Shown here: positions 19,891-37,307 of the stretch, piece by piece
Layout of the letters: every line of letters begins with the position of its first letter
How positions within the stretch are numbered: the stretch's first letter is position 1
Virus record (IMG/VR): IMGVR_UViG_3300034101_006325
Coordinates: 136,304-200,303 of that record
Reading direction: 5' to 3' (one strand)
From: a virus
Lineage: Duplodnaviria; Caudoviricetes
Length of the DNA stretch: 64,000 nucleotides
Notes under the pieces: model-generated
Database searches by the model: none
What the model was told of the DNA's origin: nothing
Seen by the model: the letters and a program-made list of their open reading frames with translations, nothing else
Made by a program: the position numbers and the translations under genes

Positions 19891-19904
19891 TTATATAAAA
19901 ATTC

Positions 19905-23195: not shown

Positions 23196-23936
23196 ATGGT
23201 TGCTTCATCTTATGCTATAGGAACAAATCCGTGGAATAGAGATGATATGATAAGTCATCTTAAAGAATTTTTAAATATTTATAAAAACAAACCAATAGAT
23301 GACAACAGTGGGGGACAAAAAGCTGCTCAACTTTTTTATTCATGGTATGTTGTAAAAAAAATTAAACCAAAAATTATTATTGAAAGCGGAGTATTTAAGG
23401 GACAAGGAACATGGGCATTTGAACAAGCTTCACCCGAATCTGAACTAATATGTTTAGATCCGTATTTGGAAAAATGGGGCGGTTATAGATCAAAAAAACC
23501 GCAATATCTTCAAAAAGATTTTAAAGAAATTAATTGGGACCACATTGAAGATAAATCTAATGTTTTGTGTTTTTTTGATGATCATCAAAATGCATTTAAT
23601 AGAATAGTTCAAATGAAACTTTTTGGTTTTAAAGTTGCAATGTTTGAAGATAACTACCCAGAAGGGCATGGAGACTGTTTATCTTTAAAGAAAATATTTG
23701 AAAATTCAGAGGCCTATCAAATATTGCCAGAATTAACATGCAAAGATTATCTTGAAAAAGTTGTAAAATGCTATCATGAACTTCCGCCTATTTGTTCTCT
23801 AGCAAAAACAAGATGGAATACTGAATGGAACGATTATCGTTCTAACAAACCCTTGCTTGAAGAATTAAATGATGAATTAGTTATTTTTCAAGATGAAATG
23901 GATCAGTATACTTGGATAAATTATGTTGAGTTATAA
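23196..23936 (+). CDS. Class I SAM-dependent methyltransferase-like protein
   Basis: IIIESGVFKGQGTW, ICLDP, FFDDH; found in a glycan cluster. Confidence 0.5.
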   Translation: MVASSYAIGTNPWNRDDMISHLKEFLNIYKNKPIDDNSGGQKAAQLFYSWYVVKKIKPKIIIESGVFKGQGTWAFEQASPESELICLDPYLEKWGGYRSKKPQYLQKDFKEINWDHIEDKSNVLCFFDDHQNAFNRIVQMKLFGFKVAMFEDNYPEGHGDCLSLKKIFENSEAYQILPELTCKDYLEKVVKCYHELPPICSLAKTRWNTEWNDYRSNKPLLEELNDELVIFQDEMDQYTWINYVEL

Positions 23937-23953
23937 TGTAAAGAGTTATTGCT

Positions 23954-24556
23954 ATGAGTTGGCAAGAGTCTGATAAAATTGTAGATCAAATGATCAGAGG
24001 ATCCAATGGATCTCTGTGGGGATTTAAATTAGAACAATCAAGTCATTTTCCTATTCTAGAAAAATTATTAAAAATCTCAGGACAAAAAGATCTACTTGTT
24101 GACATTGGATGTGGAGCAGGAGATGTTTCACGTTCTTGGAATGGAGATTATCTTGGAGTTGATTTAGACTGGGTTATAAAAAGAGTATCAAGAATTTGCA
24201 ATCCTAGTAAAACTTTTTTAAGTCTAGACATTACGTCTAAAGATACTTTTTATGATATTCCTAAATCTAATTGTTTGCTAATGAATGCATTTCTTGACGT
24301 TCAAGAAAATCCTTTAGAAGTTCTTGAAAAATTTTGTAGACAAGTTGATACAAACTGGATAATTGTTCATAGGCAAAGAATAAGGAATATTGAAAAAACA
24401 AAAATTGAATATGTTCCTGGCTACGGCGGTTCTTTAATACCTTCTTCTGTTATTTCTTTTAAAGAAATAAATGATATTAAACAAAAATATTCTAAAGAAT
24501 TTTTAATTGGATTGTGGGAAAATGATTGGTATTCATTTGCAATGAGAATCAAATAA
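23954..24556 (+). CDS. Class I SAM-dependent methyltransferase
   Basis: LVDIGCGAG, YLGVDL; stop overlaps the aminotransferase start (TAATG). Confidence 0.75.
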   Translation: MSWQESDKIVDQMIRGSNGSLWGFKLEQSSHFPILEKLLKISGQKDLLVDIGCGAGDVSRSWNGDYLGVDLDWVIKRVSRICNPSKTFLSLDITSKDTFYDIPKSNCLLMNAFLDVQENPLEVLEKFCRQVDTNWIIVHRQRIRNIEKTKIEYVPGYGGSLIPSSVISFKEINDIKQKYSKEFLIGLWENDWYSFAMRIK

Positions 24557-25617
24557 TGAAATTTGTAGATCTACAATTTGAAAATAAAAATGCAAAACTA
24601 TCATCAAAAAATAGTTTTAAACTTATTGAAAAAACTGGAAAGTATCTTCTTGGAGAATATTTAGAAAATTTTGAAAATCAATTTGCTAAGGATCAAGATA
24701 AAAAATATTGCATAGGCGTAAAAAATGCGACGGATGCGCTTGCAATATCATTTAAAGCTCTTGGATCAGAAAATAGAACCGTTATTATTCCTCAATTTGG
24801 TGCATATCCTACTGTGATGGCAGCGATTCAAGCTAATTCAAAAAATATAATAGCTGCTCCCGTAGATGAAACTTTATGTCTTAATCTCGAGGATGTTAAA
24901 ATACCAGATAATAGCATAATCGTTCCTGTCAATCTATTTGGAAATGAATCAAATTTAACTTACTTAAGAAAAAGAGCAGATGAAACAAATAGTCATATTG
25001 TAGAAGACTGTGCTCAATCAACAGGAATTCCTAATAATAATCTAAGTGATGTCTCTATTCATAGTTTTTATCCTACTAAACCGCTTGGTTGTCAAGGAGA
25101 TGGCGGGGCAATTCTCACGAATGATGAAAGAATTGCTAAATTCTGTAAACAAGCAAGATTTTATGGTCTTAATGATGGAATAATTGATTCCTGGGGTTTT
25201 AATAGTAGAATGGACGAGTGGCAATCCTGCTTTTTAACATCAAAACTATCATACTATAGAAATTTAAATGACACTAGAAAAGAAAATGCAAATTTATACA
25301 ATCAAATTCTAAATAAGAGCATTAGATACACAGAAAATTGCGTTTATCATCAGTATGTAAGTCTTTGGAAGGATAGAAAGTATATTCAAAAAAAATTATC
25401 AGAAAAAGGCATTCCTACGATGATTCATTACCCTAAAATGTTAATTGATATGCCATACCTTCGGGACAAAGTTAAATTTGTCAATGAGTGTCCAAGAGTT
25501 TCTGATTATATTCTGTCAATTCCAGTGGGGCCACATCTTACAAATCAAAATATTAAAAAAATAAAAAAAGAAATCAATAGCTTAAAGAGTAATTTAATTG
25601 ATTTTAAAGAAATTTAA
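24556..25617 (+). CDS. DegT/DnrJ/EryC1/StrS PLP-dependent sugar aminotransferase (FdtB-like)
   Basis: NATDAL, PVNLFG, VEDCAQS, SFYPTKPLGCQGDGGA (PLP Lys), NSRMDEWQ, VYHQY; start refined to MKFVDL. Confidence 0.9.
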   Translation: MKFVDLQFENKNAKLSSKNSFKLIEKTGKYLLGEYLENFENQFAKDQDKKYCIGVKNATDALAISFKALGSENRTVIIPQFGAYPTVMAAIQANSKNIIAAPVDETLCLNLEDVKIPDNSIIVPVNLFGNESNLTYLRKRADETNSHIVEDCAQSTGIPNNNLSDVSIHSFYPTKPLGCQGDGGAILTNDERIAKFCKQARFYGLNDGIIDSWGFNSRMDEWQSCFLTSKLSYYRNLNDTRKENANLYNQILNKSIRYTENCVYHQYVSLWKDRKYIQKKLSEKGIPTMIHYPKMLIDMPYLRDKVKFVNECPRVSDYILSIPVGPHLTNQNIKKIKKEINSLKSNLIDFKEI

Positions 25618-25656
25618 AATTTCTTTTTGACACTACGCTAAAAAGACTATCATAAA

Positions 25657-26622
25657 ATGAAAAAAGCATTTATCACAGGAATTACAGGACAAGACGGATC
25701 ATACTTGACAGAATTACTCCTTCAAAAAGGATATTCTGTAATTGGAATAAAAAGAAGAACTTCTGTATTAAATACTTCCAATATAGATCATCTATATGAA
25801 AATCCTAATCTTAAACTTTTTTATGGAAACATGAATGATGTTGGATCAATGTACCGATTGCTTTCAGAACATCAGCCCGATGAAGTTTACAATTTAGCAG
25901 CTCAATCACATGTAAGAACATCGTTCGATGTGCCAGAAGAAACAGTTGATGCAGTTGCAATGGGAACAATGAGATTATTAGAAGCTTGTAGGAATATTGT
26001 TCCAAAAGTCAAGTTTTATCAAGCTTCTTCTTCTGAAATGTTTGGAGATAATACTGAAGAATTAAAAAATGAAGACACGAGAATGTCTCCCGCATCACCT
26101 TACGCTGCCGCAAAACTTTTTTCACATAATTTAGTTAGAAATTACAGATTAGGTTATGGAATGCACGCATCGTCAGGAATTCTTTTTAATCATGAATCAC
26201 CACGGAGAGGTGAAACTTTTGTTACAAGAAAAATTACGAGAGCTGTTGCTAGAATAAAGCTTGGAAAACAAAATATTTTAAAACTTGGAAACATGGATTC
26301 ATATAGAGACTGGGGATTCGCTGGAGATTATGTCGAAGCTATGTGGCTTATGTTACAACAAGATACTCCTGATGATTATGTTATTGCTACGGGTGAAACA
26401 CGTACAGTCAGAGAATTTGTTGAAAAAACATTTGAATTGGCAGGTTTAGATTATAAAAAATATATTCAGATTGATCCTAGACTTTATCGACCCCACGAAG
26501 TACCTCATCTTCTAGGCGATGCTTCAAAAGCTAAAAAAATATTAGGATGGAAACCAAAACATACTTTTGATGATTTGATAAAATTAATGTATGAGTCAGA
26601 TCTAAAAAATGAACTTATTTAA
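25657..26622 (+). CDS. gmd: GDP-mannose 4,6-dehydratase
   Basis: AFITGITGQDGSYL, YNLAAQSHV, QASSSEMFG, SPYAAAK, LFNHESPRRG, RDWG. Confidence 0.95.
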   Translation: MKKAFITGITGQDGSYLTELLLQKGYSVIGIKRRTSVLNTSNIDHLYENPNLKLFYGNMNDVGSMYRLLSEHQPDEVYNLAAQSHVRTSFDVPEETVDAVAMGTMRLLEACRNIVPKVKFYQASSSEMFGDNTEELKNEDTRMSPASPYAAAKLFSHNLVRNYRLGYGMHASSGILFNHESPRRGETFVTRKITRAVARIKLGKQNILKLGNMDSYRDWGFAGDYVEAMWLMLQQDTPDDYVIATGETRTVREFVEKTFELAGLDYKKYIQIDPRLYRPHEVPHLLGDASKAKKILGWKPKHTFDDLIKLMYESDLKNELI

Positions 26623-26647
26623 TGAATAAATTTAAATACAGTAAACT

Positions 26648-27019
26648 ATGTTAAATTTTGATGATTATACACGTGCAATCGACGATAGAGGGAAATTATT
26701 TGCATTTAATAAATTGCAACAGTTTGATATAAAAAGAGTCTATTTAATAGAACCAGAAAAAAATATCTGGCGCGGAAAACACTTTCATAAAGAATGCACA
26801 CAAATAGTTCTAGTATTCAATGGAGAATTATTTTGCAAAGTCATTAATGAAAATACAAAAGAAGTGAATGAATTTGTGATGCCCGCAGGGACATCTTTTT
26901 GTCAGACTCCTGGTCTAGCTTTTTGTTTTAAAGCAAACTTAGAAGATACCAAAATCTTAGTTCTCTCTAATAGAGAATTTGATAAAAATGATTACTATGA
27001 GGTATCACTAGGTGTCTAG
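26648..27019 (+). CDS. fdtA: FdtA/QdtA-type cupin, dTDP-4-keto-6-deoxyhexose 3,4-ketoisomerase
   Basis: DDRGKL, IKRVYLI, RGKHFHK, LVLSNREFD.YY. Confidence 0.75.
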   Translation: MLNFDDYTRAIDDRGKLFAFNKLQQFDIKRVYLIEPEKNIWRGKHFHKECTQIVLVFNGELFCKVINENTKEVNEFVMPAGTSFCQTPGLAFCFKANLEDTKILVLSNREFDKNDYYEVSLGV

Positions 27020-27650
27020 CATCATAACAAACTCTTGGAATTCTTTTTCAGAAGAATATTCTAAAAATTATTTGAATGATGCTGATTCAGTACTTCCCAA
27101 GACTCTTTCAAATTTTATATTTAAAGAATTTAATACACCTAATTTAATCGATATAGGTTGCGGGAACGCTAGATTCTACAATTATTTGCTAAATGAAAAA
27201 AGAGATTTTAGCTATGAAGGTTTTGATATATCAGCCCCACTCATAAATGCAGCTAAAATTAAATATGAAAAAAATAAAAATTTTTATTGCAAACTAGTTG
27301 ATTCTAGTCTGTCTGATCTAAGACAAATAAATAAAAAATTTGATATAGCTGTATGCACACATCTTGTAGAACTTTGTGAATCGCCAGAAAATCTTTTTTA
27401 TACAATGACAAATTTGTCAGATACAGTCGCTGTAATATGGTATGAGTATCCAAGATTTGAATATACGCAGTTAGAAATTAGAAACTACGTAAGTCATGAC
27501 ATGCAAGAAAAAAAGATAATTACTCCTTATCTTAGAAATAGATATTCAAAATATTATTTGAAATTTTTAATGGATCGTTTCAGCCTTAAATCAATTCATA
27601 AAATTTCCATATCTGAAAAAGATGTTTTAGAAATTTATAAAAAAATATGA
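27012..27650 (+). CDS. Class I SAM-dependent methyltransferase
   Basis: LIDIGCGNA, YEGFDIS, FDIAVCTHLVE; GTG start overlapping fdtA. Confidence 0.8.
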   Translation: MSSIITNSWNSFSEEYSKNYLNDADSVLPKTLSNFIFKEFNTPNLIDIGCGNARFYNYLLNEKRDFSYEGFDISAPLINAAKIKYEKNKNFYCKLVDSSLSDLRQINKKFDIAVCTHLVELCESPENLFYTMTNLSDTVAVIWYEYPRFEYTQLEIRNYVSHDMQEKKIITPYLRNRYSKYYLKFLMDRFSLKSIHKISISEKDVLEIYKKI

Positions 27651-28225
27651 GAAAAGAAACGTTACAGATTATAAAAAATCTGAATAAAAATTTTAAAGGT
27701 GAATATGTTTATGATATGGGTGGCGGCTACAATCCCGTAACTTCTGACATTGTTGGAAATAAAAAAATAAAAGTAGTCGACTATTTTTCAGGGCCAAAAG
27801 TAGACATTATTGACGATCTAACAAAATTAAATTCGATAGAATCGAACTCTGTTGATAATATTTTTTGCTCTGATGCACTAGAACATGTAATTGAACCCTG
27901 GAATGCAATCAAACAATTTCATAGAGTTTTAAAAAATGATGGCATATTGTTTGTTACTGTTCCTTTTATTTGGCATTTTCATGGTCATGAAATTCAAAAA
28001 GAAAATTGGAAAAGTAGGGTTGATTTTTGGCGATTTACACCACAAGCACTAGAGTCTTTGTGTTTTAAGTATTTTGAAAAAATTGATTGCAATTGGGACT
28101 TGGAACCGCCTCTTGGTCCCCAAGAATTACCAATATGGCGTTGCGGCGTATATTACATGGGCAAAAAACTTTCAAGTATAAGAAAAGAAGATTATACACT
28201 AGAAATAACTAGAGACAATTGGTAA
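27647..28225 (+). CDS. Methyltransferase type 11-like
   Basis: YDMGGG, SVDNIFCSDALEHV, RVLKNDG, VPF.W..H, DFWRFT. Confidence 0.8.
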   Translation: MRKETLQIIKNLNKNFKGEYVYDMGGGYNPVTSDIVGNKKIKVVDYFSGPKVDIIDDLTKLNSIESNSVDNIFCSDALEHVIEPWNAIKQFHRVLKNDGILFVTVPFIWHFHGHEIQKENWKSRVDFWRFTPQALESLCFKYFEKIDCNWDLEPPLGPQELPIWRCGVYYMGKKLSSIRKEDYTLEITRDNW

Positions 28226-29295
28226 ACATGGCTTGTATTATTAAAATACCTGACGAAAACTCAAAAGGTGTCGTTACATTCACCACACAAGAAAGAGACA
28301 AATTAATTTTTAATGATAAAGCAATTTTTGAAAAAATTGTTACTTTAAAAAAAGATTATATAGTTGGTCTTCATCACAATTGGCATGATTACAACTTTAG
28401 ATATCATCCTTTGTTTGATTTTAGTATGGCTGGGGAGGGAGATCTTGGCAATTCGGAAGTTCCTCTTATAACTTTAGATGCATGCAATTTCATTCCAGAA
28501 GAATTTCATTCATCGACAGGAGAAAAATTTTGGGATGTAGTCTATGTTACACGTGCTGTCTATTTTAAAAGAGTCGATCTTTTCTTCAAGGCTATAAAGA
28601 AAATTTATGACACAGGTAAAAAAATAAAAGTATTACTTGTTTGTTGCATCCCTCCAGAAGATGCAACTCCTAAAAATGTTATTGAAGACTATCTTTCAAC
28701 TTTTAACGAAGAAGAAAGAAAATATTTTACTTTTCTACCATTAACACATGATTATCCTTTTTGTCTAGATCCGGCATCAATAGGATTTTTTTATAGATCC
28801 TCAAAGATATTTGCCCACTTTGCTAATGATGAAAGAAGATGCAGAGTAGTAGCAAATGCCGCTGCAACATGCATGCCAATAGTTTGTATGTCTGACCCTG
28901 CTTCAATTATTCCAGAACATTTAAAAAAGCCACCATACTGTTATATTGTTAAAAGTGATGATGATTTTTCAAATAAAATTATTCAATCACTTAATGAATA
29001 TGATGAAAATAAAAATTTATTTGAATTATCAAAACATTTTAGTGTAAAACATACAAAACAAGAACTTAAACAACAATTAGAAAAATTTTTAAAAATTTCA
29101 AAAGATAAAATGTTAGATTCTTCTTTTAATTTTTTTAATCTTGACATTAGACTTGGAAGACATCACAGCATCAGCTACGGACCAAATAAAGTCAATATGT
29201 CTTTAGATGAATTTTCTAAAATATTGCTTGATAAACAAAATTTAAGTTTAATATGGGATTCTTCTTGTAAAGATTTTGAAAAGAAAATTTCATGA
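28219..29295 (+). CDS. Glycosyltransferase, GT4-like
   Basis: WDVVYVTR...KRVDLF, YRSSKIF, RVVANAAATCMPIV; start may be 28228. Confidence 0.6.
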   Translation: MVNMACIIKIPDENSKGVVTFTTQERDKLIFNDKAIFEKIVTLKKDYIVGLHHNWHDYNFRYHPLFDFSMAGEGDLGNSEVPLITLDACNFIPEEFHSSTGEKFWDVVYVTRAVYFKRVDLFFKAIKKIYDTGKKIKVLLVCCIPPEDATPKNVIEDYLSTFNEEERKYFTFLPLTHDYPFCLDPASIGFFYRSSKIFAHFANDERRCRVVANAAATCMPIVCMSDPASIIPEHLKKPPYCYIVKSDDDFSNKIIQSLNEYDENKNLFELSKHFSVKHTKQELKQQLEKFLKISKDKMLDSSFNFFNLDIRLGRHHSISYGPNKVNMSLDEFSKILLDKQNLSLIWDSSCKDFEKKIS

Positions 29296-29363: not shown

Positions 29364-30059
29364 ATGCATAATATTCATTTAAATTCAATTAATGAAAAAG
29401 GTTATGCATTAATTCCTAATTTTTTAGGAAGCAATGAAGTCAAAAATTTAAAAAATAGCTTATTCAAAATATACAGCAACTATAGATTAGGTGATCAGAT
29501 AGAAATACCCGGAATGTCTACGCCTAAGCAATATAGTACTGGAAAATCCATGAGAATTTATCCTCCTGCATATTGTAATTTTTCTGAAATTGAAAATTTT
29601 AAGAAAGATTGGCTCACACAACTTACTGATGCTTTTTTTGAAGGAGCAAATAATAAAGGACTTCAAGTATTTTCTTCATATGAAACATTGTCTTACAGAG
29701 AAGTCAACGAATTACCTAGAAATTCTCACATGCACGTAGATCCATATCATTCTCTTAAATTTTTTAGTTATTTGACTGATACAACCAAAGAGAATGGCGC
29801 ACTTCAATTAATTCCGGGTACAAGCTGGATTGGCAAAAAAATAAGAAAAGAAAACAGCATTAATGAACTATTGACCAGCGATTTATATACCTTTAAAAAA
29901 AGCAATTATTATAATTCTGATCTTGAAAAAGAAACTACTTTTATCGAAGGTAAAGCTGGCGATCTAATAATTCTAGATACAGATACTGTGCATTGTGGGG
30001 GTATTCTTGTAAAGCCAGGGCTAGAAAGACTTACAATAATCTATCACAATAGGAAATAG
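29364..30059 (+). CDS. Phytanoyl-CoA dioxygenase-like 2OG-Fe(II) oxygenase
   Basis: EKGYALIPNFL, HVD, YLTDTTKENGALQLIPGT, AGDLIILDTDTVHCG, distal Arg. Confidence 0.85.
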   Translation: MHNIHLNSINEKGYALIPNFLGSNEVKNLKNSLFKIYSNYRLGDQIEIPGMSTPKQYSTGKSMRIYPPAYCNFSEIENFKKDWLTQLTDAFFEGANNKGLQVFSSYETLSYREVNELPRNSHMHVDPYHSLKFFSYLTDTTKENGALQLIPGTSWIGKKIRKENSINELLTSDLYTFKKSNYYNSDLEKETTFIEGKAGDLIILDTDTVHCGGILVKPGLERLTIIYHNRK

Positions 30060-30060
30060 T

Positions 30061-30660
30061 ATGAAAACTTGTGCCATTGTAGGAAATTCTTCTTGTTTAT
30101 TGGATAAAAGTTATGGAAGTTTTATCGATAGTCATGATGAAGTTATAAGATTTAACATGGCACGAACAAGAGGATTTAAAAAATATGTTGGAACAAAAAC
30201 GACAATAAGATTTTGTAATCAACACATTGTTATGTCCAATTTTTCAGACGATTATTTAAAAGAACAGCTTAAAGTCTTTCCAGAATGGGACAATAAAGAA
30301 ATTCTAACGTGGGAAAAACAAAAATTATTTTTTAAATATAGCAAAGAGCTTAAAGGAACAGAGCTTGAATCTCAGTTGTTTTCTAAAAACAATGAGATTT
30401 ACTACATAAGTGATTTAGAAATAATAAAATTAAAAAGAAAATTAAATGTAGAACCTACAATGGGGTTAGTGGGATTAGATTATGCTTTGACATTTTTTAG
30501 TACAATAAATTGCTTTGGTTTTGATTTTTATAAAAATCAAAACAGATCTTTTCATTATTTTGAAAAAACAATACCTTATAAATCTTGCCATGATCATAAA
30601 GAAGAAAAGAAATTCTTCAAAGATGCTGAAGAATCAGGAAAGATAAAAATTTATAGATGA
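30061..30660 (+). CDS. GT29-family sialyltransferase-like protein
   Basis: Sialylmotif L (CAIVGNSSCLLDKSYGSFIDSHDEVIRFNMA...VGTKTT), S-like (PTMG...INCFGFDF), III (HYFE), VS-like (HDHKEE). Confidence 0.85.
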   Translation: MKTCAIVGNSSCLLDKSYGSFIDSHDEVIRFNMARTRGFKKYVGTKTTIRFCNQHIVMSNFSDDYLKEQLKVFPEWDNKEILTWEKQKLFFKYSKELKGTELESQLFSKNNEIYYISDLEIIKLKRKLNVEPTMGLVGLDYALTFFSTINCFGFDFYKNQNRSFHYFEKTIPYKSCHDHKEEKKFFKDAEESGKIKIYR

Positions 30661-31283
30661 AAATATTGATTCCTGCACGAATGGGATCCAAAGGATTCCC
30701 TAAAAAAAATAGAATTTTATTTGATTATACTGCTAGAATTATTCCTAAAGATTTCATTAAAAATACAGTAGTTTCGACAGATGACCCTGAAATTGTCAAA
30801 ATGGCTGAATCTTATAATTTCTTAGTTCATCATCGATCAGAAGAATTATCAAGAGATGAAACTTCTACAAAAGAAGTAGTTGAATCTTTTTTAAAACAAG
30901 AAATTATTGATGATAATTCAAAGTTAACAGCGCTTTTATATTTGACTTATCCGCAAAGAAAATGGGATGATGTTGTCAGAGCAAAAGAATTGATTGATAG
31001 CTCTAAATCAAAATCTTTGCTATGTGCATTTGACATCGAGGCACATCCATTTTTAATGGCATTTGAAATGCCAGGTCATAGAGGAAAACAATTATATAAA
31101 CACAATTTATATAGAAGACAGGATTATCCTAAATGTTTTGAAATATCACATTTTGTATGTATGTTTTATGACGATGAAGTAAAAAATTTAAATAATAATC
31201 TCTATAATGAAGACACATATTTTATGAAATGTAATAAAAAGGTAGATGTTGATCTACTAGAACATTTTTTAAAAATACAATGA
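30657..31283 (+). CDS. neuA: CMP-nonulosonate (acylneuraminate) cytidylyltransferase
   Basis: IPARMGSKGFPKKN, VSTDD, R.EELSRDETS, LTYPQR, RRQD, DVD. Confidence 0.88.
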   Translation: MKILIPARMGSKGFPKKNRILFDYTARIIPKDFIKNTVVSTDDPEIVKMAESYNFLVHHRSEELSRDETSTKEVVESFLKQEIIDDNSKLTALLYLTYPQRKWDDVVRAKELIDSSKSKSLLCAFDIEAHPFLMAFEMPGHRGKQLYKHNLYRRQDYPKCFEISHFVCMFYDDEVKNLNNNLYNEDTYFMKCNKKVDVDLLEHFLKIQ

Positions 31284-32098
31284 AAAAAATTAAAATTATT
31301 GCAGAAATTGGAATAAATCACAACGGCAGTGTTGAGTTGGCAAAAAAGATCATTGCAGTGTCTGCAGCAGCAGGCTGTGATTATGTTAAATTTCAAAAAA
31401 GAAACCCAGATGTATGTGTACCAGAAGATCAAAAATTAAAAGTTAGGTCTACTCCGTGGGGAGAAATGACGTACATTGACTATAAGAAAAAAATTGAATT
31501 TGAAAAAGAACAATATGATGAAATTGACAAATTTTGCAAACAATTAGGCATTAAATGGTTTGCGTCTGCGTGGGATTTATCTTCTCTTGATTTTTTAAAA
31601 AGATATTCAGATGTTGTAAAGATTCCATCAGCACTTATTACAAATGAAGAACTTTTATTGAATGCAAGAAAAAAATTTGATTTTCTTTTAATATCAACTG
31701 GCATGAGTACTGAGTCTGAGGTAGAAAATGCAGTTAAAATTTCAAATCCCGATGTAATTTTTCATACTAACTCAAGTTATCCTAGCAAAGTTGAAGATTT
31801 AAATTTAAACTACATAAAACATCTAAAAAATAAGTTTAATAGAACGGTGGGTTATAGTGGACATGAATTTGGACTTGTTACAACATTTGCAACTGTACCT
31901 TTGGGTGTCGAATGGATAGAAAGACATGTCACTTTAGATAGAGAAATGTGGGGATCTGATCAAAAATCATCTGTAGAACCATCGGGTATTTACAAGCTTG
32001 TCAAAGGAATACGGGATATAGAAAAATCATTAGGAAGTATTGGGCCAAGAGTAATTTGTAAAGAAGAATTAGAAAAGAAAAAATCACTTAGAGGTTGA
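31280..32098 (+). CDS. neuB: Nonulosonic acid synthase (NeuB/NANS family), short form without C-terminal antifreeze-like domain
   Basis: IAEIGINHNG, VKFQKR, FASAWD, KIPSA, ISTGMS, GYSGHE, IERHVTLD, GSDQ; 272 aa. Confidence 0.92.
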   Translation: MKKIKIIAEIGINHNGSVELAKKIIAVSAAAGCDYVKFQKRNPDVCVPEDQKLKVRSTPWGEMTYIDYKKKIEFEKEQYDEIDKFCKQLGIKWFASAWDLSSLDFLKRYSDVVKIPSALITNEELLLNARKKFDFLLISTGMSTESEVENAVKISNPDVIFHTNSSYPSKVEDLNLNYIKHLKNKFNRTVGYSGHEFGLVTTFATVPLGVEWIERHVTLDREMWGSDQKSSVEPSGIYKLVKGIRDIEKSLGSIGPRVICKEELEKKKSLRG

Positions 32099-32406
32099 AT
32101 GTGTTAATTTACGTAGATATTGATGAAACAATCTGCAATACGCCTGACGATAGAAACTATTTAAAGTCTACACCCATAAAAAAAAATATAAAAATTATAA
32201 ATTCTCTTCATGAAAAAGGCCATCAAATTGTTTATTGGACTGCAAGAGGAACAGTCACAGGAATTGATTGGTCAAATGAAACTATTAGACAGTTAGACGA
32301 ATGGGGTGTCAAAAGAACAAAAGTTCTTTTTGGAAAGCCAGCATATGATTTATTCATATGCGACAAAGCGATTAATTCAAATGTTTTTTTTAATTTAACT
32401 CAATAA
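32095..32406 (+). CDS. HAD-superfamily phosphatase (capsule-biosynthesis type)
   Basis: YVDIDETIC (DxDxT), WTARG, GKPAYD..ICDKA; TTG start overlapping neuB stop. Confidence 0.8.
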   Translation: MNVLIYVDIDETICNTPDDRNYLKSTPIKKNIKIINSLHEKGHQIVYWTARGTVTGIDWSNETIRQLDEWGVKRTKVLFGKPAYDLFICDKAINSNVFFNLTQ

Positions 32407-32419
32407 GGCATATTAATTT

Positions 32420-32926
32420 ATGATCAAACTTTTACCGATGATGCAATTGGAAGAGCTAAATCTTCTCGAAAAATATCTTGATAAAGAAAAAGTGATTTGC
32501 GAATACGGCTCAGGCGGTTCTACAAATTGGCTTTCAGAAAGAACCAAATTTGTATATTCAATAGAACACAACAAAGAGTGGTATGATAAAACAAAAAGTA
32601 GTTTGTCAAATAGAGAAAATGTAGAAATTTTTTATGTCCCAAGTTTTAATTGGGACCCAAGCACCGAAGGAAATATTGATAGTTTTGAAAACTACATTAA
32701 TATGCCAGGAACTTTAAATATAGATTTTTCTTTCTTTTTAGTGGATGGCAGAGCTAGAGTTGACTGTTGCAGGTTTATATCAAAAAAATTTCCAACAGCT
32801 ATTATTGCTTTTCATGACTATACCAATAGAGCAAATGATGTTGAGCACAATTATTCAAGAGTCTTAGAACATTTAACTTTAATTGAAACCTGTAAAACTC
32901 TTGCAATTTTTAAAAAGAAAGTCTAA
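32420..32926 (+). CDS. Class I SAM-dependent methyltransferase-like protein
   Basis: ICEYGSGGST, SIEHNKEW, LVDGRAR, FHDY. Confidence 0.7.
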   Translation: MIKLLPMMQLEELNLLEKYLDKEKVICEYGSGGSTNWLSERTKFVYSIEHNKEWYDKTKSSLSNRENVEIFYVPSFNWDPSTEGNIDSFENYINMPGTLNIDFSFFLVDGRARVDCCRFISKKFPTAIIAFHDYTNRANDVEHNYSRVLEHLTLIETCKTLAIFKKKV

Positions 32927-32983: not shown

Positions 32984-33799
32984 ATGGAATCAAATCTGTC
33001 ATTAGAAACTTTACCTACAGGAAAACCTCATGTTTCATTTTCTGAGGTAAAGTTATGGAAAGAATGTTCTTTTAGACATCATCTTGTTCATGTCAAAAAA
33101 ATTGATTTATCTAAGCCCTCGCCCGTTTTAGATTTTGGCACAGCTGTTCATGCTTCTTGTGAAAAATATCTTTTGACAAGAGAGATGGACTACCAAGTAG
33201 CTTTTAAACATTTGGACGATGCCTGGAAAAAACATGAAGGAATTGTAGAATTCAATGCTTTGTCATTGGAAAAAGCAAAGCAAGAAGCTACACAAATTCT
33301 TTTAGAAGTGCCTGCTTTTCTCGACAAAGAATTTCCAGGATGGGAAGTCGTTGATGCTGAACATCAGCTTTATGAAGCAGTTGAAGGCCATCCTCACGCT
33401 TTCAAAGGATTCATCGACGGAGTTATAAAAGCCAAAGGGAAAAGAGGTGAGACAATCTATTGGATTCTGGATTGGAAGACAACGATTAGAGGCTGGCTTA
33501 GAGAAAAAAGATCTGATGAAATGGTTAAGTCACAATTGGCACTCTATAAAAACTACTGGTGTCAAAAAAATCCTGAAATTCAATTTAAAGATGTCAGATG
33601 CGGTTTCGTCCTTTTAAAAAAATCTGCAAAACCAGGAGAACATTGTGAACTTTTTTCTGTTTCACTTGGAGAAGTTCCTATTAAAAGGTCTTTAAAGGTC
33701 GTTAGCAATATGCTTACTTCTGTAAAGAGAGGTATTGCTTTGAAAAATAGAGACTCTTGTACTTATTGTGAATACAAAAATACCAATCATTGCACATAA
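32984..33799 (+). CDS. PD-(D/E)XK nuclease, Cas4/RecB-like with Fe-S Cys
   Basis: KGFIDG, LDWKT, QLALY; one N-terminal Cys (KEC) plus C-terminal CTYCEYKNTNHC. Confidence 0.85.
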   Translation: MESNLSLETLPTGKPHVSFSEVKLWKECSFRHHLVHVKKIDLSKPSPVLDFGTAVHASCEKYLLTREMDYQVAFKHLDDAWKKHEGIVEFNALSLEKAKQEATQILLEVPAFLDKEFPGWEVVDAEHQLYEAVEGHPHAFKGFIDGVIKAKGKRGETIYWILDWKTTIRGWLREKRSDEMVKSQLALYKNYWCQKNPEIQFKDVRCGFVLLKKSAKPGEHCELFSVSLGEVPIKRSLKVVSNMLTSVKRGIALKNRDSCTYCEYKNTNHCT

Positions 33800-33825
33800 T
33801 TTATTTTTGATAGCATTAATTTTTA

Positions 33826-33855
33826 TTACAACTTTTAAAAAGTTGGTAATATAAC
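33826..33855 (+). promoter_or_regulatory. Candidate promoter TTACAA-N18-TATAAC with near-palindromic spacer
   Basis: ATTACAACTTTTAAAAAGTTGGTAAT is an imperfect inverted repeat; lies upstream of the GT4 pair. Confidence 0.4.
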
Positions 33856-33859
33856 GTGG

Positions 33860-35107
33860 ATGAAGAAAAAAACGATTTTAATGCTATCAGATCATCCTTT
33901 GTCTACTTCAGGCGTAGGCACACAGGCAAGATGGTTAATAACAGGTTTAATCAACACTGGTAAATATAGTTTTAGATGTTTTGGTGGTGCTGTTAGACAC
34001 GATAACTACGATCTTAACGTAGTAAGTCCTGATTTTGTCATTAAACCGACAAATGGTTTTGGTGATAGAAATCTTTTAAGAAAAACTCTAGCACAATTAA
34101 AACCCGACGCTCTTCTTCTCTTTACGGATCCAAGATTTTTTATTTGGACTTGGGAAATGGAGGATGAGATTCACCAAGTCTGTCCTATTGCTTATTGGCA
34201 CTTATGGGATAATGGACCTTGGCCGGAATTTAATAGGGCACTATACGCGTCCAATGATTTGATCAATTGCATTAATTATCCGACCTATGAGATGGTCAAA
34301 GAACGTTTTCCAGATAGGACAAATTATATTCCACATGCTGTCCCAAAGGATCTTTACTATCCTTTACCTGACGAAGAGGTAAAAAACTTTAAAAGAAATC
34401 TTTTAGGCAAAGATAAAGAAGATCATTTTGTTGTGGGATATGTTAGTAGAAATGCCCGTCGAAAAATGCCAAGTGACATTATTGTTTCTTGGAAAATGTT
34501 TATTGATGAGCTAAAGAAAAAGCATGGGCACACAAAAGCCAGTCTTGTCATGCATACAGAGCCTTTAGATCCGGAAGGACCTAACTTACATCATGTATTA
34601 GATTCATTGGACGCGAAAGATCATGTTGTTTTTTCTAATAAACGTGTAAATTTTCAAGAAATGAATGTGATATACAACATATTCGATACAATCGTTAATA
34701 GAAGCTCTAATGAAGGTTTTGGACTTCCTACACTAGAAACAATGATGTGTGGCAAACCAATTATTGCAATAAAGACAGGCGGTTTAACGAGACAAGTCGA
34801 AGATCCTGATACGGGTTTTCAACACGGCATAGCGTTGGAACCTGAAATAAAGTCTTTGGTGGGAAACCAAATGGTTCCTTACATTTATGAAGATTTCATA
34901 AGCCACAAAACTTTGGCAGATGCATTTATGAAAATGTACGAAATGGGTCCTGAAAAAAGAAAAGAACTTGGACAAAAAGCAATGCAGCATGCGCACAAAA
35001 ATTACAATATTGACAATATGATAAAAGATTGGGATTCTTCTTTGACCAAATTAATTGACAATTGGCAAGAAGGCAAAAACAAGAGATGGACGCACGAGGA
35101 GATTTGA
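33860..35107 (+). CDS. GT4-family glycosyltransferase
   Basis: SDHP...SGVGTQ, YIPHAV, SRNARRK, NEGFGLPTLETMMCGKPII. Confidence 0.88.
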   Translation: MKKKTILMLSDHPLSTSGVGTQARWLITGLINTGKYSFRCFGGAVRHDNYDLNVVSPDFVIKPTNGFGDRNLLRKTLAQLKPDALLLFTDPRFFIWTWEMEDEIHQVCPIAYWHLWDNGPWPEFNRALYASNDLINCINYPTYEMVKERFPDRTNYIPHAVPKDLYYPLPDEEVKNFKRNLLGKDKEDHFVVGYVSRNARRKMPSDIIVSWKMFIDELKKKHGHTKASLVMHTEPLDPEGPNLHHVLDSLDAKDHVVFSNKRVNFQEMNVIYNIFDTIVNRSSNEGFGLPTLETMMCGKPIIAIKTGGLTRQVEDPDTGFQHGIALEPEIKSLVGNQMVPYIYEDFISHKTLADAFMKMYEMGPEKRKELGQKAMQHAHKNYNIDNMIKDWDSSLTKLIDNWQEGKNKRWTHEEI

Positions 35108-35108
35108 A

Positions 35109-36281
35109 ATGAAAAAAGCAATTCTTAGAGGACCTTCTCTCACACAATCCGGTTATGGCGTTCATTGTAGACAAGTTGCATCTTGGCTCTTGTCAAAAAA
35201 AGATTGGGATGTCAAATTCCAAGCTCTGCCATGGGGAGATACCCCGTGGTTATTAAATGAAAAATCAAATGATGGTTTGATTGATAGAATTATGAAGAAT
35301 ACTGTGGACCTATCTGACAGTAATTCTAATTATGACATCTCCTTTCAATTACAGCTTCCTAATGAATGGGATCACAAACTTGCAAAATACAATGTTGGAA
35401 TGACTGCAGGAATTGAAACTGATATTTGCAATCCTGTGTGGATAGACTGCTGTAATAAAATGGATTTAGTCATAGTTCCTTCAAAGCACGCAGAAAATTC
35501 ATTAAAAAATTCAGGAAAAATTAACACACCAATTCAAATAGTACCAGAATCGTTTTGCAATGAAATTTTAGACGAAACAAGCACAGATCTTTTGAAAAAT
35601 TTCCCTACATTTAGCACAAATACTAATTTTCTGGTATTTGGACAGATTACAGGGGACAATCCCATGAATGATAGAAAGAATATTTTCTTCACTATTAAAT
35701 GGTTTTGTGAAGTCTTCAAAGATGATCCTGATGTAGGTCTTGTAATAAAGACAAATATCGGTAGAAATACTCAGATTGATAAAAAGAAAACGTTAGAATT
35801 GATGTCAATCATTGTAAAAGAATGCAGAAAAAGTCAATTTCCTAAAATTCATATTATTCATGGTGACATGACAGACAAAGAAGTTGCTGCGTTATACAAG
35901 CATCCTCAGATTAATGGATTTATTTCCCTAACAAGAGGAGAGGGATATGGCCTACCCCTGTTGGAAGCAGCAGCTAGCGGGCTACCAGTTATTGCCACAG
36001 GTTGGTCGGGACATATGGACTTTTTATCCCGAGGAAAGTTTATTGAAATAGACCACGATGTGAAAAAAATACATGCATCAAGAGCAGACAATAAACTATT
36101 CATGCCTGAAGCAAAATGGGCTGAAGCAAATGAAGATGACTTCAAGAAAAAAATCGTAAAATTTAAAAATTCTCAAGCAAAACCCAAAGAATGGGCAAAA
36201 GAATTAGAATTAATCATTAAAGAAAATTATAGTCAGGAATCAATTTTTAAATACTATGACAAAGTAGTTGAAAATATATGA
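35109..36281 (+). CDS. GT4-family glycosyltransferase
   Basis: SGYGVHCR, IVPSKH, RKNI, RGEGYGLPLLEAAASGLPVIATGWSGH; start refined to MKKAIL. Confidence 0.88.
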   Translation: MKKAILRGPSLTQSGYGVHCRQVASWLLSKKDWDVKFQALPWGDTPWLLNEKSNDGLIDRIMKNTVDLSDSNSNYDISFQLQLPNEWDHKLAKYNVGMTAGIETDICNPVWIDCCNKMDLVIVPSKHAENSLKNSGKINTPIQIVPESFCNEILDETSTDLLKNFPTFSTNTNFLVFGQITGDNPMNDRKNIFFTIKWFCEVFKDDPDVGLVIKTNIGRNTQIDKKKTLELMSIIVKECRKSQFPKIHIIHGDMTDKEVAALYKHPQINGFISLTRGEGYGLPLLEAAASGLPVIATGWSGHMDFLSRGKFIEIDHDVKKIHASRADNKLFMPEAKWAEANEDDFKKKIVKFKNSQAKPKEWAKELELIIKENYSQESIFKYYDKVVENI

Positions 36282-36580
36282 TTTTAATTTTATTGACTGC
36301 CTTACTAATTTCTGTGAGTTCTCTTCTTTTTATAAGTGTCAAAAAAAATCTGGAATACATGGAGTTAATTGATGGGCTAGAAGAAAATTTAAAAGATTCA
36401 ATAGAATTATTAAACGAATACTATGTCAAAATAGACAAAAAATCAAAATTAGAACTTTTTTTGGATGAGCCAGTCACAAGAGAGCTGGTTGAAGACATTA
36501 GGGGTTCAAAAAAAGCCGTTAAAAATGCGGCTGAAAAACTTTCTATTTACTTAGAAGAAACAGATGAAAATGACCAATGA
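36278..36580 (+). CDS. Membrane-anchored coiled-coil hypothetical protein
   Basis: N-terminal hydrophobic stretch MILILLTALLISVSSLLFISV. Confidence 0.55.
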   Translation: MILILLTALLISVSSLLFISVKKNLEYMELIDGLEENLKDSIELLNEYYVKIDKKSKLELFLDEPVTRELVEDIRGSKKAVKNAAEKLSIYLEETDENDQ

Positions 36581-37307
36581 AATTAAGGCAGCAATAAAAA
36601 AGAGATCTGAAAAAAAGCAAGATCCTCTAAAGATGTATTTTAACTCCGACACCCATAATGCAATTGTTAAATTTCAAGAAGAAAAAAGCAAATTAGAAAA
36701 AGATAAAATTTATGTGCAAGAAATTTTACCTTCATTTGAAAAACTTGTTGAAAACTTAATCAACATTCATAAATTTACAGGCCTCTATGATACATACGAA
36801 GACTTAAAAAATGATTGTGTTAATTTTTTATTTGAGACAATAACTAAATTTGATGCGTCTAGAGGCACAAATGCTTTTTCATATTTTAATGTTGTTGCAA
36901 AAAATTGGCTGATCATAAAAACAAAACAAAAGAATCAAAAAACAAAAAAGAATGTAAGTCTTGATGATGAAAATTCTTTAAGCAATCATGAAAAAGAAAT
37001 GATTGATGATTATTATTCTGTTCCTTCTCAAGACTATCTTCTGGAAACATTTGGATCTTCTGACGAAATTTTAAAAATTCTTTATGAGATAAGAGGAATT
37101 ATAAAAACAGAGAATGAGTTATTGTGCATTAATTCGATCATAACAATTTTTGAAAATATCGATGACATTGACTTGCTCAATAAAAATGCTATACTCCTCT
37201 ACATGAGAGAACTTTCAGGTTTTAGTCCAAAACAATTAACAACTGCAATGCAGTCTGTCAAAAAATATTATAAAAGAATAAAACATGAAAACTTAGAAAG
37301 AGACTAA
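36564..37307 (+). CDS. Divergent sigma factor-like protein (candidate late sigma, gp55-like)
   Basis: YEDLKNDCVNFLFETITKFDASRGTNAFSYFNVVAKN resembles sigma region 2 (EDL...KFD..RG..FS.Y); directly precedes the baseplate genes. Confidence 0.6.
   Translation: MKMTNEIKAAIKKRSEKKQDPLKMYFNSDTHNAIVKFQEEKSKLEKDKIYVQEILPSFEKLVENLINIHKFTGLYDTYEDLKNDCVNFLFETITKFDASRGTNAFSYFNVVAKNWLIIKTKQKNQKTKKNVSLDDENSLSNHEKEMIDDYYSVPSQDYLLETFGSSDEILKILYEIRGIIKTENELLCINSIITIFENIDDIDLLNKNAILLYMRELSGFSPKQLTTAMQSVKKYYKRIKHENLERD

Follow-up and report, generated by a model that had tools for sequence, protein, structure and literature searches.

Can a phage make, activate, and transfer a sialic-acid-like sugar with enzymes of its own? 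The question is raised by six genes in a 64,000-nt window, the whole stretch of DNA analysed here, which covers positions 136,304 to 200,303 of the IMG/VR record IMGVR_UViG_3300034101_006325; this record of a large freshwater-lake phage comprises 200 kb and is only about 61% complete. An earlier sequence-only reading had described six co-oriented, mostly abutting genes, and this layout was confirmed to the nucleotide: the six open reading frames span 29364–32926, all on the plus strand, separated by 1 nt at the first junction and 13 nt at the last and overlapping by 4 nt at each of the three between. Of the family assignments, five proved right, and the sixth, a methyltransferase, holds at the level of the fold only.

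29364..30059, plus strand: PhyH-family Fe(II)/2-oxoglutarate dioxygenase, 231 aa (Pfam PF05721, 1.5e-9)
30061..30660, plus strand: minimal soluble GT29 sialyltransferase-like enzyme, 199 aa (Pfam PF00777, Glyco_transf_29, 3.5e-27)
30657..31283, plus strand: NeuA-type CMP-nonulosonate synthetase, 208 aa (Pfam PF02348, CTP_transf_3, 8.6e-11)
31280..32098, plus strand: NeuB-family nonulosonate (possibly 9-phosphate) synthase, 272 aa (Pfam PF03102, 2.7e-65)
32095..32406, plus strand: mini HAD-superfamily sugar-phosphate phosphatase, 103 aa, TTG start (phrog_1238, 1.5e-23)
32420..32926, plus strand: class-I SAM methyltransferase-like protein, 168 aa (ESM Atlas model, GSGGS motif)

A TM-like segment is absent from all six proteins, and the block probably represents a soluble, cytoplasmic pathway that synthesises a nonulosonic (sialic-acid-like) sugar, activates it, and transfers it in the course of infection.

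The transferase is a GT29 enzyme reduced to its core. The protein begins at sialylmotif L, has neither membrane anchor nor stem, and contains all four sialylmotifs (L, S, III, and VS) within 199 residues; alignment A1 shows no variation at the motif residues G8, N9, S10, R30, N32, P132–G135, C151, H165–E168, H177, and E182. In the PDB, its profile retrieves pig ST3Gal-I, ST6Gal1, and ST8SiaIII, and the AlphaFold model (pLDDT 96.6) best matches human ST6GalNAc2, ST8SiaIII, and pig ST3Gal-I (E 5e-11, TMq 0.65–0.73), with GT42 CstII as the next structural match after the mammalian GT29s. CMP-sialic acids are the donors of those GT29 enzymes whose function is known; the transfer of other acid sugars has reportedly been proposed for plant GT29-like proteins, a point against the predicted pathway. 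An exhaustive profile search retrieved 1611 representative clusters of mini-GT29s of 190–260 aa at E<1e-10, a family far larger than the 23 bacterial GT29-like sequences, 19 of them alphaproteobacterial, listed by Petit et al. (2018, Sci Rep 8:2946; PMC5811610), who mention neither phages nor viruses. The phage protein resembles those bacterial sequences in being a prokaryote-associated putative enzyme with sialylmotifs L, S, III, and VS from an aquatic setting; it differs in being phage-encoded, in lacking an N-terminal extension at only 199 aa, and in having the genes for its putative donor pathway and a paired dioxygenase beside it.

The donor would be supplied by NeuB and NeuA. The phage NeuB consists of a TIM barrel only, without the SAF domain, and scores 215 bits on NCBIfam NeuB_NnaB and 162 bits on PseI; its PDB matches include the pseudaminic acid synthase PseI (8h2c, the best single-sequence match), the SAF-less 6ncs, and Neisseria meningitidis NeuB. 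Residues E9, K37, H195, E214, and H216 correspond to E25, K53, H215, E234, and H236 of the N. meningitidis enzyme, whose E134 is replaced by L119. Arg314 of the N. meningitidis SAF domain contacts the substrate (PMC8208679) and has no counterpart in the phage NeuB because this domain is absent. NeuA matches NCBIfam PseF (3.4e-14, residues 4–189) and, over its full length, the CMP-Neu5Ac synthetases of Vibrio cholerae (6ifd, 9e-14) and N. meningitidis (1eyr, 4e-6); no KdsB structure was found among its PDB matches at E<0.1. The NeuB and NeuA scores lie well below the NCBIfam equivalog cut-offs and, with the leucine in place of E134 and the missing R314, would speak against the predicted pathway.

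The mini-HAD scores weakly in Pfam (3e-3) and matches PDB entry 9iqw at 5e-9, or at 3e-20 when its profile is used. Its DxDxT motif (D8, D10, T12), T49, K81, D85, and D90 show no variation across 41 viral homologues, and its model (pLDDT 93.8) matches 9iqw with a TMq of 0.90 at 31% identity. This nearest solved relative, AfhF of phage HY126, is also a phage sugar-phosphate phosphatase, but its substrate is D-arabinose 1,5-diphosphate instead of a nonulosonate 9-phosphate, which argues against the pathway; its pathway context also differs, whereas the mini-HAD here is tied to NeuB and NeuA.

The two remaining genes differ in how firmly they belong to the block. The HxD motif (H124, D126), distal histidine (H210), and arginine (R222) of the dioxygenase are invariant across 12 homologues, its neighbours in the Atlas are PhyH clusters, mainly viral, and its gene lies directly 5' of the GT29 gene in every relative, including a distant 187.7-kb contig (L009), where the PhyH abutting the GT29 gene is 38% identical. 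The methyltransferase-like protein has a glycine-rich GSGGS motif and zero matches in Pfam; the neighbours of its Atlas model (pTM 0.92) are of the Methyltransf_24, IRX15/GXM-like, and O-methyltransferase types (TM 0.71–0.88). Its inclusion in the module stands only in part: the gene adjoins the HAD gene in one independent run, and L009 encodes a 29%-identical homologue (3e-17) immediately before NeuA–NeuB, but the gene is missing in the nearest relatives (L002, L006), where a dehydrogenase or epimerase occupies the slot. It is a variable member of the module, not a conserved one.

The five core genes (PhyH–GT29–NeuA–NeuB–HAD) occur in the same or nearly the same order on independent metagenomic contigs at 50–86% amino acid identity, with the HAD position shifting within the block, and four additional runs, each from a different study, contain near-identical DNA pieces. 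As this order recurs on independent contigs and parts of the set are found in two unrelated huge phages, the linkage is not due to chance. The 484-kb phage LR756508.1 encodes Gmd, NeuB (53% identity), HAD (42% identity), four GT29 paralogues, and one NeuA. In L009, where the methyltransferase-like, NeuA, and NeuB genes form a second block apart from the PhyH–GT29 pair, the module adjoins replication genes, not structural genes; the late-gene context is therefore not conserved, a further point against the pathway. A gene-neighbourhood survey of IMG/VR, suggested in the sequence-only reading, revealed an arrangement that is not rare but widespread in uncultured viral contigs, with the NeuB type of this phage on at least 162 of them; the module recurs in many uncultured phages and is not a one-off. 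The NeuB–HAD–GT29 association is virus-specific: when the 80 top viral loci of this NeuB type were set against the 80 top loci from cellular genomes, a mini-HAD lay within 10 kb of NeuB in 58 viral and 3 cellular loci (Fisher p = 4.5e-21), and a GT29-like gene in 22 viral and no cellular loci (Fisher p = 9e-8). NeuA-like genes were present in 58 of these 80 viral loci, and of 45 whole viral records, 14 have a Pfam GT29 match, among them three of the four complete ones.

These associations bear on whether the genes form one sialylation pathway at all. The mini-HAD, the GT29-like enzyme, or both might act on a different sugar (for example Kdo-type acids or, as for AfhF, pentose phosphates), or the island might modify DNA or make a secondary metabolite instead of a surface glycan. 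The identity of the closest characterised HAD relative and the very high frequency of this small HAD family across phages generally are consistent with such a role, and clusters of sugar genes in jumbo phages that include 2OG oxygenases, HADs, and O-methyltransferases have been interpreted as secondary-metabolite or capsule-decoration systems (PMC7824862). This is improbable given how strongly, and how specifically in viruses, HAD and GT29 cluster with NeuB and NeuA; it is further weakened by a NeuA that resembles CMP-Neu5Ac synthetases rather than KdsB and by the absence of KdsA/KdsB from the annotated island and the relatives' flanks. The CMP-sialic acid donors of characterised GT29 enzymes argue in the same direction.

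The genes are present as described, but the six-gene module is not an isolated unit; it is a sub-block of a soluble glycan-building island of about 20 kb (16776–37307), just upstream of late and baseplate genes.

16776..29295, plus strand: upstream part, with GT2 genes, RmlB-like 4,6-dehydratase, DegT aminotransferase, Gmd, FdtA-like ketoisomerase, three methyltransferases, and GT4 (Pfam, NCBIfam)
25657–26622, plus strand: Gmd (Pfam, NCBIfam)
32984..37307, plus strand: downstream part (Pfam, PHROGs)
32984–33799, plus strand: PD-(D/E)XK nuclease (Pfam, PHROGs)
33860–36281, plus strand: two GT4 genes, followed by a small ORF (Pfam, PHROGs)
36564–37307, plus strand: late-sigma-like gene (Pfam, PHROGs)
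from about 39180: baseplate genes (Pfam, PHROGs)

The upstream part is syntenic in L002, and the downstream part in L002 and L006. With its RmlB/LegB-like dehydratase and PseC/LegC-like aminotransferase, the island could be thought to feed a legionaminic, pseudaminic, or other diamino-type nonulosonate, in keeping with 8h2c and PseF as the best single-sequence PDB match of NeuB and the best NCBIfam match of NeuA. This is very improbable: neither an N-acetyltransferase nor PseG was found among the annotated island genes, the hydrolysing 2-epimerase (Epimerase_2) was not found, the FdtA-like ketoisomerase next to DegT instead suggests a 3-amino-3,6-dideoxyhexose pathway, and the dehydratase and aminotransferase are unlinked to NeuB in L009, L011, and most viral loci. 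We also know of no role for a phosphatase in the legionaminic and pseudaminic acid pathways.

The block had also been called self-contained, which does not hold as it stands, since the 200-kb record contains neither a NeuC/GNE-type enzyme (Epimerase_2) nor a complete legionaminic/pseudaminic acid upstream set. The module would be self-sufficient only if NeuB took a host central metabolite such as mannose-6-phosphate, and the Gmd gene implies a mannose-phosphate pool. Epimerase_2 is likewise missing from 36 of the 45 related viral records, three of the four complete ones among them, and this absence, together with Gmd, favours a phosphorylated, NeuC-independent route; the nine records with both a NeuC-like gene and this NeuB type count against it. 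In some of these (L022, L030, and L031, at least) a HAD-like gene also lies near NeuB, so the HAD is not simply a NeuC substitute.

Those nine records, in some of which the NeuC-like gene adjoins NeuB, would also suit an animal-like route to Neu5Ac, in which NeuB would form Neu5Ac-9-phosphate from ManNAc-6-phosphate or use free host ManNAc, with HAD, NeuA, and GT29 in the roles of NANP, CMAS, and the transferase. The higher NeuB_NnaB score, the proximity of NeuA to CMP-Neu5Ac synthetases, and the parallel with the eukaryotic architecture agree with this route. It is nevertheless unlikely, as neither a NeuC/GNE-type enzyme nor an N-acetyl-sugar kinase was seen in the incomplete 200-kb record, and the SAF domain that provides the substrate-contacting Arg314 in N. 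meningitidis is lacking (PMC8208679). The phage set parallels the animal pathway (the Neu5Ac/Kdn-9-P synthase NANS, the HAD phosphatase NANP, CMAS, and Golgi GT29) in its four enzyme families and the logic of their order, and its GT29 retains the fold and the VS-motif catalytic histidine. It differs in a NeuB without the antifreeze-like SAF domain, a capless 103-aa HAD of another subfamily, a soluble GT29 without type-II membrane anchor or stem, and a predicted all-cytoplasmic set in one operon-like block. To our knowledge, neither ManNAc nor ManNAc-6-P is a general metabolite of bacteria, a further difficulty for Neu5Ac.

For the preferred nonulosonate pathway, mannose-6-phosphate, giving Kdn-9-phosphate, is tentatively proposed as the NeuB substrate. 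This proposal is modelled on the Bacteroides thetaiotaomicron Kdn pathway, which comprises a Kdn-9-P synthase and a Kdn-9-P phosphatase (structures 3e81 and 4hgo). Both pair a prokaryotic NeuB homologue with a HAD phosphatase independently of NeuC, but the phosphatase of B. thetaiotaomicron belongs to the KdsC-type HADs and is only a remote structural match to the mini-HAD (TMq ~0.43), and no GT29 is known to be involved there. We infer the order of the steps, the sugar, and the acceptor as follows. The SAF-less NeuB would condense PEP with a hexose or hexose-6-phosphate from host metabolism, the mini-HAD would remove phosphate from the product or the substrate, NeuA would produce the CMP-sugar, and the minimal GT29 would move the sugar to a glycan built by the surrounding glycosyltransferases, while the dioxygenase and methyltransferase-like protein may tailor the acceptor or the acid sugar. 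The NeuB–HAD–NeuA–GT29 logic put forward previously is coherent, with conserved synteny behind it. Virion proteins, considered because the island is co-oriented with late-sigma-like and baseplate genes, and a host envelope glycan are about equally plausible acceptors, leaving a smaller chance for other targets.

In the literature searched, no paper describing a phage GT29–NeuB module was found, in line with the earlier impression that none had been characterised, and a term search of PMC9614988, PMC7824862, and PMC7029224 returned no mention of a nonulosonate pathway or a phage GT29. Bacterial NeuABC clusters with GT38, GT42, GT52, or GT80 (E. coli K1, N. meningitidis, Campylobacter jejuni) likewise place NeuB and NeuA homologues beside a sialyltransferase, and the phage GT29 fold is related to GT42 CstII, but these clusters use NeuC, free ManNAc, a SAF-containing NeuB, and non-GT29 transferases, without a phosphatase. 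Myxoma virus encodes a GT29 alpha-2,3-sialyltransferase, but this enzyme depends on host CMP-Neu5Ac. The phage GT29 is a stripped-down relative of animal sialyltransferases, encoded beside genes expected to make and activate a sialic-acid-like nine-carbon sugar. Glycan genes are carried by chlorovirus and mimivirus (PMC9614988), and LPS or glycosyltransferase clusters by cyanophage and pelagimyophage (PMC7824862, PMC7029224); like the present island, such viral machinery combines the virus's own sugar-nucleotide enzymes with glycosyltransferases, in phages often beside tail or host-recognition genes.

All six open reading frames of the proposed sialylation module that the sequence-only reading had placed at 29364–32926 lie on the plus strand at these coordinates; the first junction leaves 1 nt between the frames, the next three overlap by 4 nt each, and the last leaves 13 nt.

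Genes of the module
29364–30059, plus strand: PhyH dioxygenase, 231 aa (Pfam, 1.5e-9)
30061–30660, plus strand: Glyco_transf_29 (GT29), 199 aa (Pfam, 3.5e-27)
30657–31283, plus strand: CTP_transf_3, NeuA-type, 208 aa (Pfam, 8.6e-11)
31280–32098, plus strand: NeuB, 272 aa (Pfam, 2.7e-65)
32095–32406, plus strand: small HAD protein (mini-HAD), 103 aa, weak in Pfam (Hydrolase_3, 3e-3)
32420–32926, plus strand: 168-aa protein, no Pfam match

The linear IMG/VR virus record has 200,303 bp, of which the window is the final 64 kb (136304–200303), and a CheckV completeness of ~61%; ARAGORN finds no tRNA or tmRNA genes in the record. The GC content is 40–49% in the first ~120 kb of the record and 29–35% over most of the window (29.5% in the module and 26.5% in the GT29 gene), and the shift is gradual, without a sharp break. 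Transmembrane-like segments are absent from all six module proteins, and a promoter and terminator scan, with counts not above those of shuffles, gives no operon boundaries. When the module is compared with deposited phages by blastn, the sole match is 141 nt in NeuB.

Animal sialyltransferases belong to family GT29. The phage protein matches PF00777 at 95.9 bits (gathering cut-off 23) over profile positions 55–270 of 272, starting 3 residues ahead of sialylmotif L and stopping just past motif VS. It carries sialylmotif L (C4-A-I-V-G-N-S ... D23-x-H-D ... R30-x-N32), sialylmotif S (P132-T-M-G ... C151-F-G-F), motif III (H165-Y-F-E), and motif VS (H177 ... E182), and 8 close homologues of ~200 aa show the key residues of these motifs without any change, while their conservation is at least 90% among 70 more distant ones. 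The PDB matches of the family profile are pig ST3Gal-I, ST6Gal1, ST6GalNAc2, and ST8SiaIII; the motifs align to pig ST3Gal-I, and the catalytic VS-motif histidine corresponds to the VS histidine of that enzyme in the profile alignment. The AlphaFold model (pLDDT 96.6) adopts the GT-A variant 2 fold of solved GT29 enzymes, and its top 30 Foldseek matches are all mammalian GT29 structures (E 5e-11 to 1e-6, TMq 0.57–0.73), the best of which reach a TMq of 0.65–0.73, while the bacterial GT42 enzymes CstI and CstII rank after them. Because of these motif, profile, and model matches to mammalian GT29, the 199-aa protein is predicted to be a true GT29 catalytic core that dispenses with the eukaryotic anchor and stem.

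The type-II topology, with its N-terminal anchor and stem, is absent from the phage protein, which has no hydrophobic segment, and the motif-L cysteine, which takes part in the L–S disulfide in Golgi enzymes, is substituted in 2 of the 8 close homologues. The anchor, the stem, and the L–S disulfide are a trait of the eukaryotic GT29 members, and not of the catalytic family. Expression of a soluble, anchor-less core of 199 aa is expected to be easy, and such a core would serve as a useful tool in enzymology and glyco-engineering. The linkage of the gene to NeuA and NeuB suggests that the phage enzyme may use a CMP-nonulosonate donor. Complex prediction for PhyH and GT29 (score 0.29; mark 0.32) gives no answer on their pairing.

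When 1.84 billion representatives were searched exhaustively with a profile, 1611 clusters matched at E<1e-10, and most of the top 150 are 190–260 aa long; the mini-GT29 type is therefore a large family, the members of which, where looked up, are metagenome-derived only and have no informative names. A locus search of IMG/VR and cellular genomes with the GT29 protein or the 8-homologue alignment found no confirmed relatives, its peptide patterns being too narrow; this null result reflects a limit of the patterns and not an absence of relatives, because the NeuB-based scan later showed many viral GT29 neighbours.

NeuB matches PF03102 at 220.7 bits across its TIM-barrel domain. Its residues E9, K37, H195, E214, and H216 correspond to the metal ligands and catalytic residues E25, K53, H215, E234, and H236 of N. 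meningitidis NeuB, while L119 sits where the meningococcal enzyme has E134. The C-terminal SAF (antifreeze-like) domain is absent from the phage protein, which stops at residue 272; SAF-less NeuBs occur in environmental bacteria (PMC8208679), and a solved one, 6ncs, is among the PDB matches. Among the NCBIfam equivalogs, NeuB_NnaB (TIGR03569 NeuB) scores 215 bits (cut-off 399.65) and PseI (TIGR03586) scores 162 (cut-off 340.25), and because both scores fall below the cut-offs, the substrate is not assignable from sequence. The ranking also depends on the method, with PseI first for the single sequence, and 3g8r and 6ncs first for the profile; naming the substrate was dropped, as the NCBIfam and PDB rankings shift in this way.

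The NeuA-type protein matches PF02348 at 42.5 bits (cut-off 22.6) and has an N-terminal P-loop-like motif, I-P-A-R-M-G-S-K-G-F-P-K-K-N. Residues 4–207 align to the Vibrio cholerae CMP-Neu5Ac synthetase 6ifd (9e-14), and the N. meningitidis and mouse CMP-Neu5Ac synthetases give further full-length alignments. No KdsB structure is among its PDB matches, and its score against the PseF equivalog, 53 bits, is under the cut-off of 205.7.

The motif residues of the mini-HAD (D8, D10, and T12 of DxDxT, T49, K81, and the acidic pair D85 and D90) are invariant across 41 viral homologues. It matches phrog_1238 (1.5e-23), scores 23.8 against TIGR01689, far under the cut-off of 162, and its model (pLDDT 93.8) has a Rossmannoid fold that matches PDB 9iqw, the D-arabinose 1,5-diphosphate phosphatase AfhF of phage HY126, with a TMq of 0.90 at 31% identity. 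Residues and model together identify the 103-aa protein as a predicted small, capless sugar-phosphate phosphatase, and its linkage to NeuB points to a possible action on a nonulosonate 9-phosphate.

PhyH matches PF05721 at 38.9 bits (cut-off 22), and its facial triad HxD...H (H124, D126, and H210) and 2-oxoglutarate-binding arginine R222 are invariant. The 168-aa protein has a glycine-rich motif, E-Y-G-S-G-G-S, and weak Erm-like matches in NCBIfam (E ~2e-3). Its ESM Atlas model (pTM 0.92) has class-I methyltransferase neighbours (TM 0.71–0.88), including Methyltransf_24, IRX15/GXM-like proteins, and O-methyltransferases, and Methyltransf_24 is found in 21–27% of the members of the clusters nearest to the model. 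The six-gene observation holds up and recurs, and as biochemistry the proposed pathway makes plausible sense; the tailoring roles of PhyH and of the methyltransferase-like protein are putative.

Metagenomic contigs that belong to the lineage of this phage (L002–L008) carry GT29 homologues that are 43–70% identical, and keep the synteny of the surrounding glycan gene island and the core PhyH–GT29–NeuA–NeuB–HAD. In L002 the HAD gene has shifted and follows GT29, ahead of NeuA. What fills the sixth slot differs from relative to relative, and may be a UDP-glucose/GDP-mannose dehydrogenase, an epimerase, or a GDP-mannose-dehydratase-like gene. In L009, a distant jumbo-phage-like contig of 187.7 kb that encodes tubulin, RecA, DnaB, and DnaE, PhyH adjoins GT29 directly (38% and 33% identity), and a homologue of the 168-aa gene, NeuA, and NeuB follow one another ~7 kb away. 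No mini-HAD is found in L009, and its NeuB (3553–5028) carries a C-terminal cupin domain with weak matches to Cupin_2 (1.7e-7) and Lyx_isomer (9e-7); the fusion may provide an alternative supply of the hexose substrate, for example as a mannose-forming isomerase.

Of 50,697 deposited phage records, the sole one in which GT29 was detected is that of LR756508.1, an uncultured huge phage of 484 kb, and this record has no annotation. Positions 312000–336000 of this phage bring together Gmd, a NeuB of 53% identity, a GIY-YIG gene, four GT29 paralogues, and a mini-HAD of 42% identity, with NeuA 14 kb upstream. The GIY-YIG gene, which is homing-endonuclease-like, lies between NeuB and the tandem or near-tandem GT29 array.

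The gene-neighbourhood survey of IMG/VR that the sequence-only reading had suggested was run through a NeuB alignment, and yielded at least 162 viral contigs with the same NeuB type. The best 80 of these (52–76% identical, with NeuB reading frames nearly all of 270–296 aa) formed the viral sample, which was dereplicated at 90% NeuB identity to 58 loci. The cellular sample consisted of the best 80 loci from 185,579 bacterial and archaeal species, with one genome per species, and its NeuBs are only 45–60% identical to the phage NeuB. Neighbours were sought within 10 kb of NeuB with HMMs built from our own alignments.

Genes near NeuB in viral, dereplicated viral, and cellular loci
NeuA-like: viral 58/80; dereplicated 24 strong and 20 weak of 58; cellular 27/80
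Mini-HAD: viral 58/80; dereplicated 43/58; cellular 3/80
GT29-like: viral 22/80; dereplicated 16/58; cellular 0/80
Gmd: viral 28/80; dereplicated 11/58; cellular 7/80

The viral and cellular counts differ with p = 4.5e-21 for the HAD and 9e-8 for GT29 (Fisher), and of 10 GT29 candidates that were sampled, 7 pass the gathering cut-off of Pfam. In whole records, Pfam GT29 is present in 14 of 45 viral ones, including three of the four that are at least 90% complete, and in none of 14 control cellular genomes. The neighbour counts therefore show that NeuB together with the mini-HAD, in part with GT29 as well, is a typically viral combination and no copy of a bacterial operon. The most similar cellular NeuBs (57–60%), on the Flavobacteriales and Legionellales MAG contigs L093 and L094, are both accompanied by a mini-HAD; the names of the two MAGs share one pattern (isolates SP71 and SP228), and the contigs may be phage contigs binned into MAGs.

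Neither Epimerase_2 (NeuC/LegG type) nor NTP_transferase was found in the 200-kb record. As NeuC is absent from 36 of 45 related viral records, including three of the four complete ones, and lies close to NeuB in the other 9, the viral NeuB family probably splits into NeuC-dependent and NeuC-independent subtypes. In five IMG/VR loci (L022, L030, L031, L035, and L045), NeuB is followed by a different NeuA subfamily, a lower-scoring HAD, and an SDR gene, with a NeuC-like Epimerase_2 on the same contig; this subtype probably represents a variant of Neu5Ac or legionaminic type. Specific to viruses, the pairing of SAF-less NeuB and mini-HAD suggests that the route depends on phosphate, does without NeuC, and starts from central sugar phosphates.

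Gmd requires a mannose-phosphate pool. Given the conserved HAD, the lack of NeuC, and the presence of Gmd, we tentatively prefer for the phage of the window a Kdn route, by which mannose-6-phosphate and PEP would be converted to Kdn-9-P, then to Kdn, and finally to CMP-Kdn. The formation of Neu5Ac from host ManNAc or ManNAc-6-P is unlikely. Diamino acids of the legionaminic or pseudaminic type are more improbable still: the island does encode an RmlB-like dehydratase, a DegT aminotransferase, and an FdtA-like ketoisomerase, but this set better fits, and suggests, a 3-amino-3,6-dideoxyhexose, and no N-acetyltransferase was seen in the island.

The module is part of a co-oriented island of ~20 kb (16776–37307) that comprises several GT2 and GT4 genes, two NDP-sugar dehydratases, an aminotransferase, a ketoisomerase, and at least three further methyltransferases.

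Genes of the island outside the module
16776, 22314, and, with a query, 19905: GT2 genes
19042: Glyco_trans_1_2-like gene
20516: RmlB-like dehydratase
23954, 27012, and 27647: methyltransferases
24526: DegT aminotransferase
25657: Gmd
26648: FdtA-like ketoisomerase
28219, 33860, and 35055: GT4 genes

A late-sigma-like gene at 36564–37307 (247 aa; weak phrog_234 match, 2.2e-5) lies between the glycan genes and the baseplate hub and wedge genes, and is kept in L002 and L006 (66–88% identity). This late-gene context fits virion glycosylation as the target, whereas published readings of similar phage islands favour the modification of host O-antigen or capsule (PMC7029224, PMC7824862), and the module of L009, unlike that of the window, adjoins replication genes. 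A PD-(D/E)XK nuclease gene (32984–33799) directly follows the module, occupies the same position in L002 and L006 (70–82% identity), and has no obvious tie to sugar chemistry.

Beyond eukaryotes, only a handful of uncharacterised bacterial GT29 sequences have been discussed, and the bacterial GT29-like sequences were published in 2018 with phages unmentioned (PMC5811610). The sequence-only reading was aware of no phage in which this complete arrangement had been characterised, and a full-text literature search, with most subscription journals outside its reach, likewise found no description of a phage GT29 or of a phage NeuB–NeuA–GT29 module; neither nonulosonates nor phage GT29 come up in reviews on jumbo phages, pelagimyophages, and the glycans of giant viruses. 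It is plausible that the module mediates nonulosonate biosynthesis and transfer through an unusual and eukaryote-like mix of enzymes (a 9-phosphate-type route and GT29) that is phage-borne. A far broader and rather doubtful proposal is that SAF-less NeuB, mini-HAD, NeuA, and mini-GT29, in many cases together with a paired PhyH, constitute a distinct virus-typical sialylation system by which large aquatic phages add a Kdn-like acid sugar as a cap to the glycans of their own virions, on tail or baseplate proteins, phages being a major overlooked reservoir and vehicle of GT29. If true, such a system would matter for the idea that eukaryotic sialyltransferases arose in prokaryotes, a widespread phage GT29 with its own donor pathway would mean that tailed phages are able to build sialic-acid-like glycans, and phage GT29 would offer a concrete path by which the family could spread horizontally.

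In lakes, adsorption, aggregation, or superinfection could be altered where virions or infected cells bear an acidic cap. Near-identical DNA pieces (0–9 differences each) come from one viral, one aquatic, and two lake-water metagenomes of four studies, and the best metagenomes for these pieces are all lake or freshwater. An independent 4-kb contig covers the HAD gene, the 168-aa gene, and the nuclease gene.
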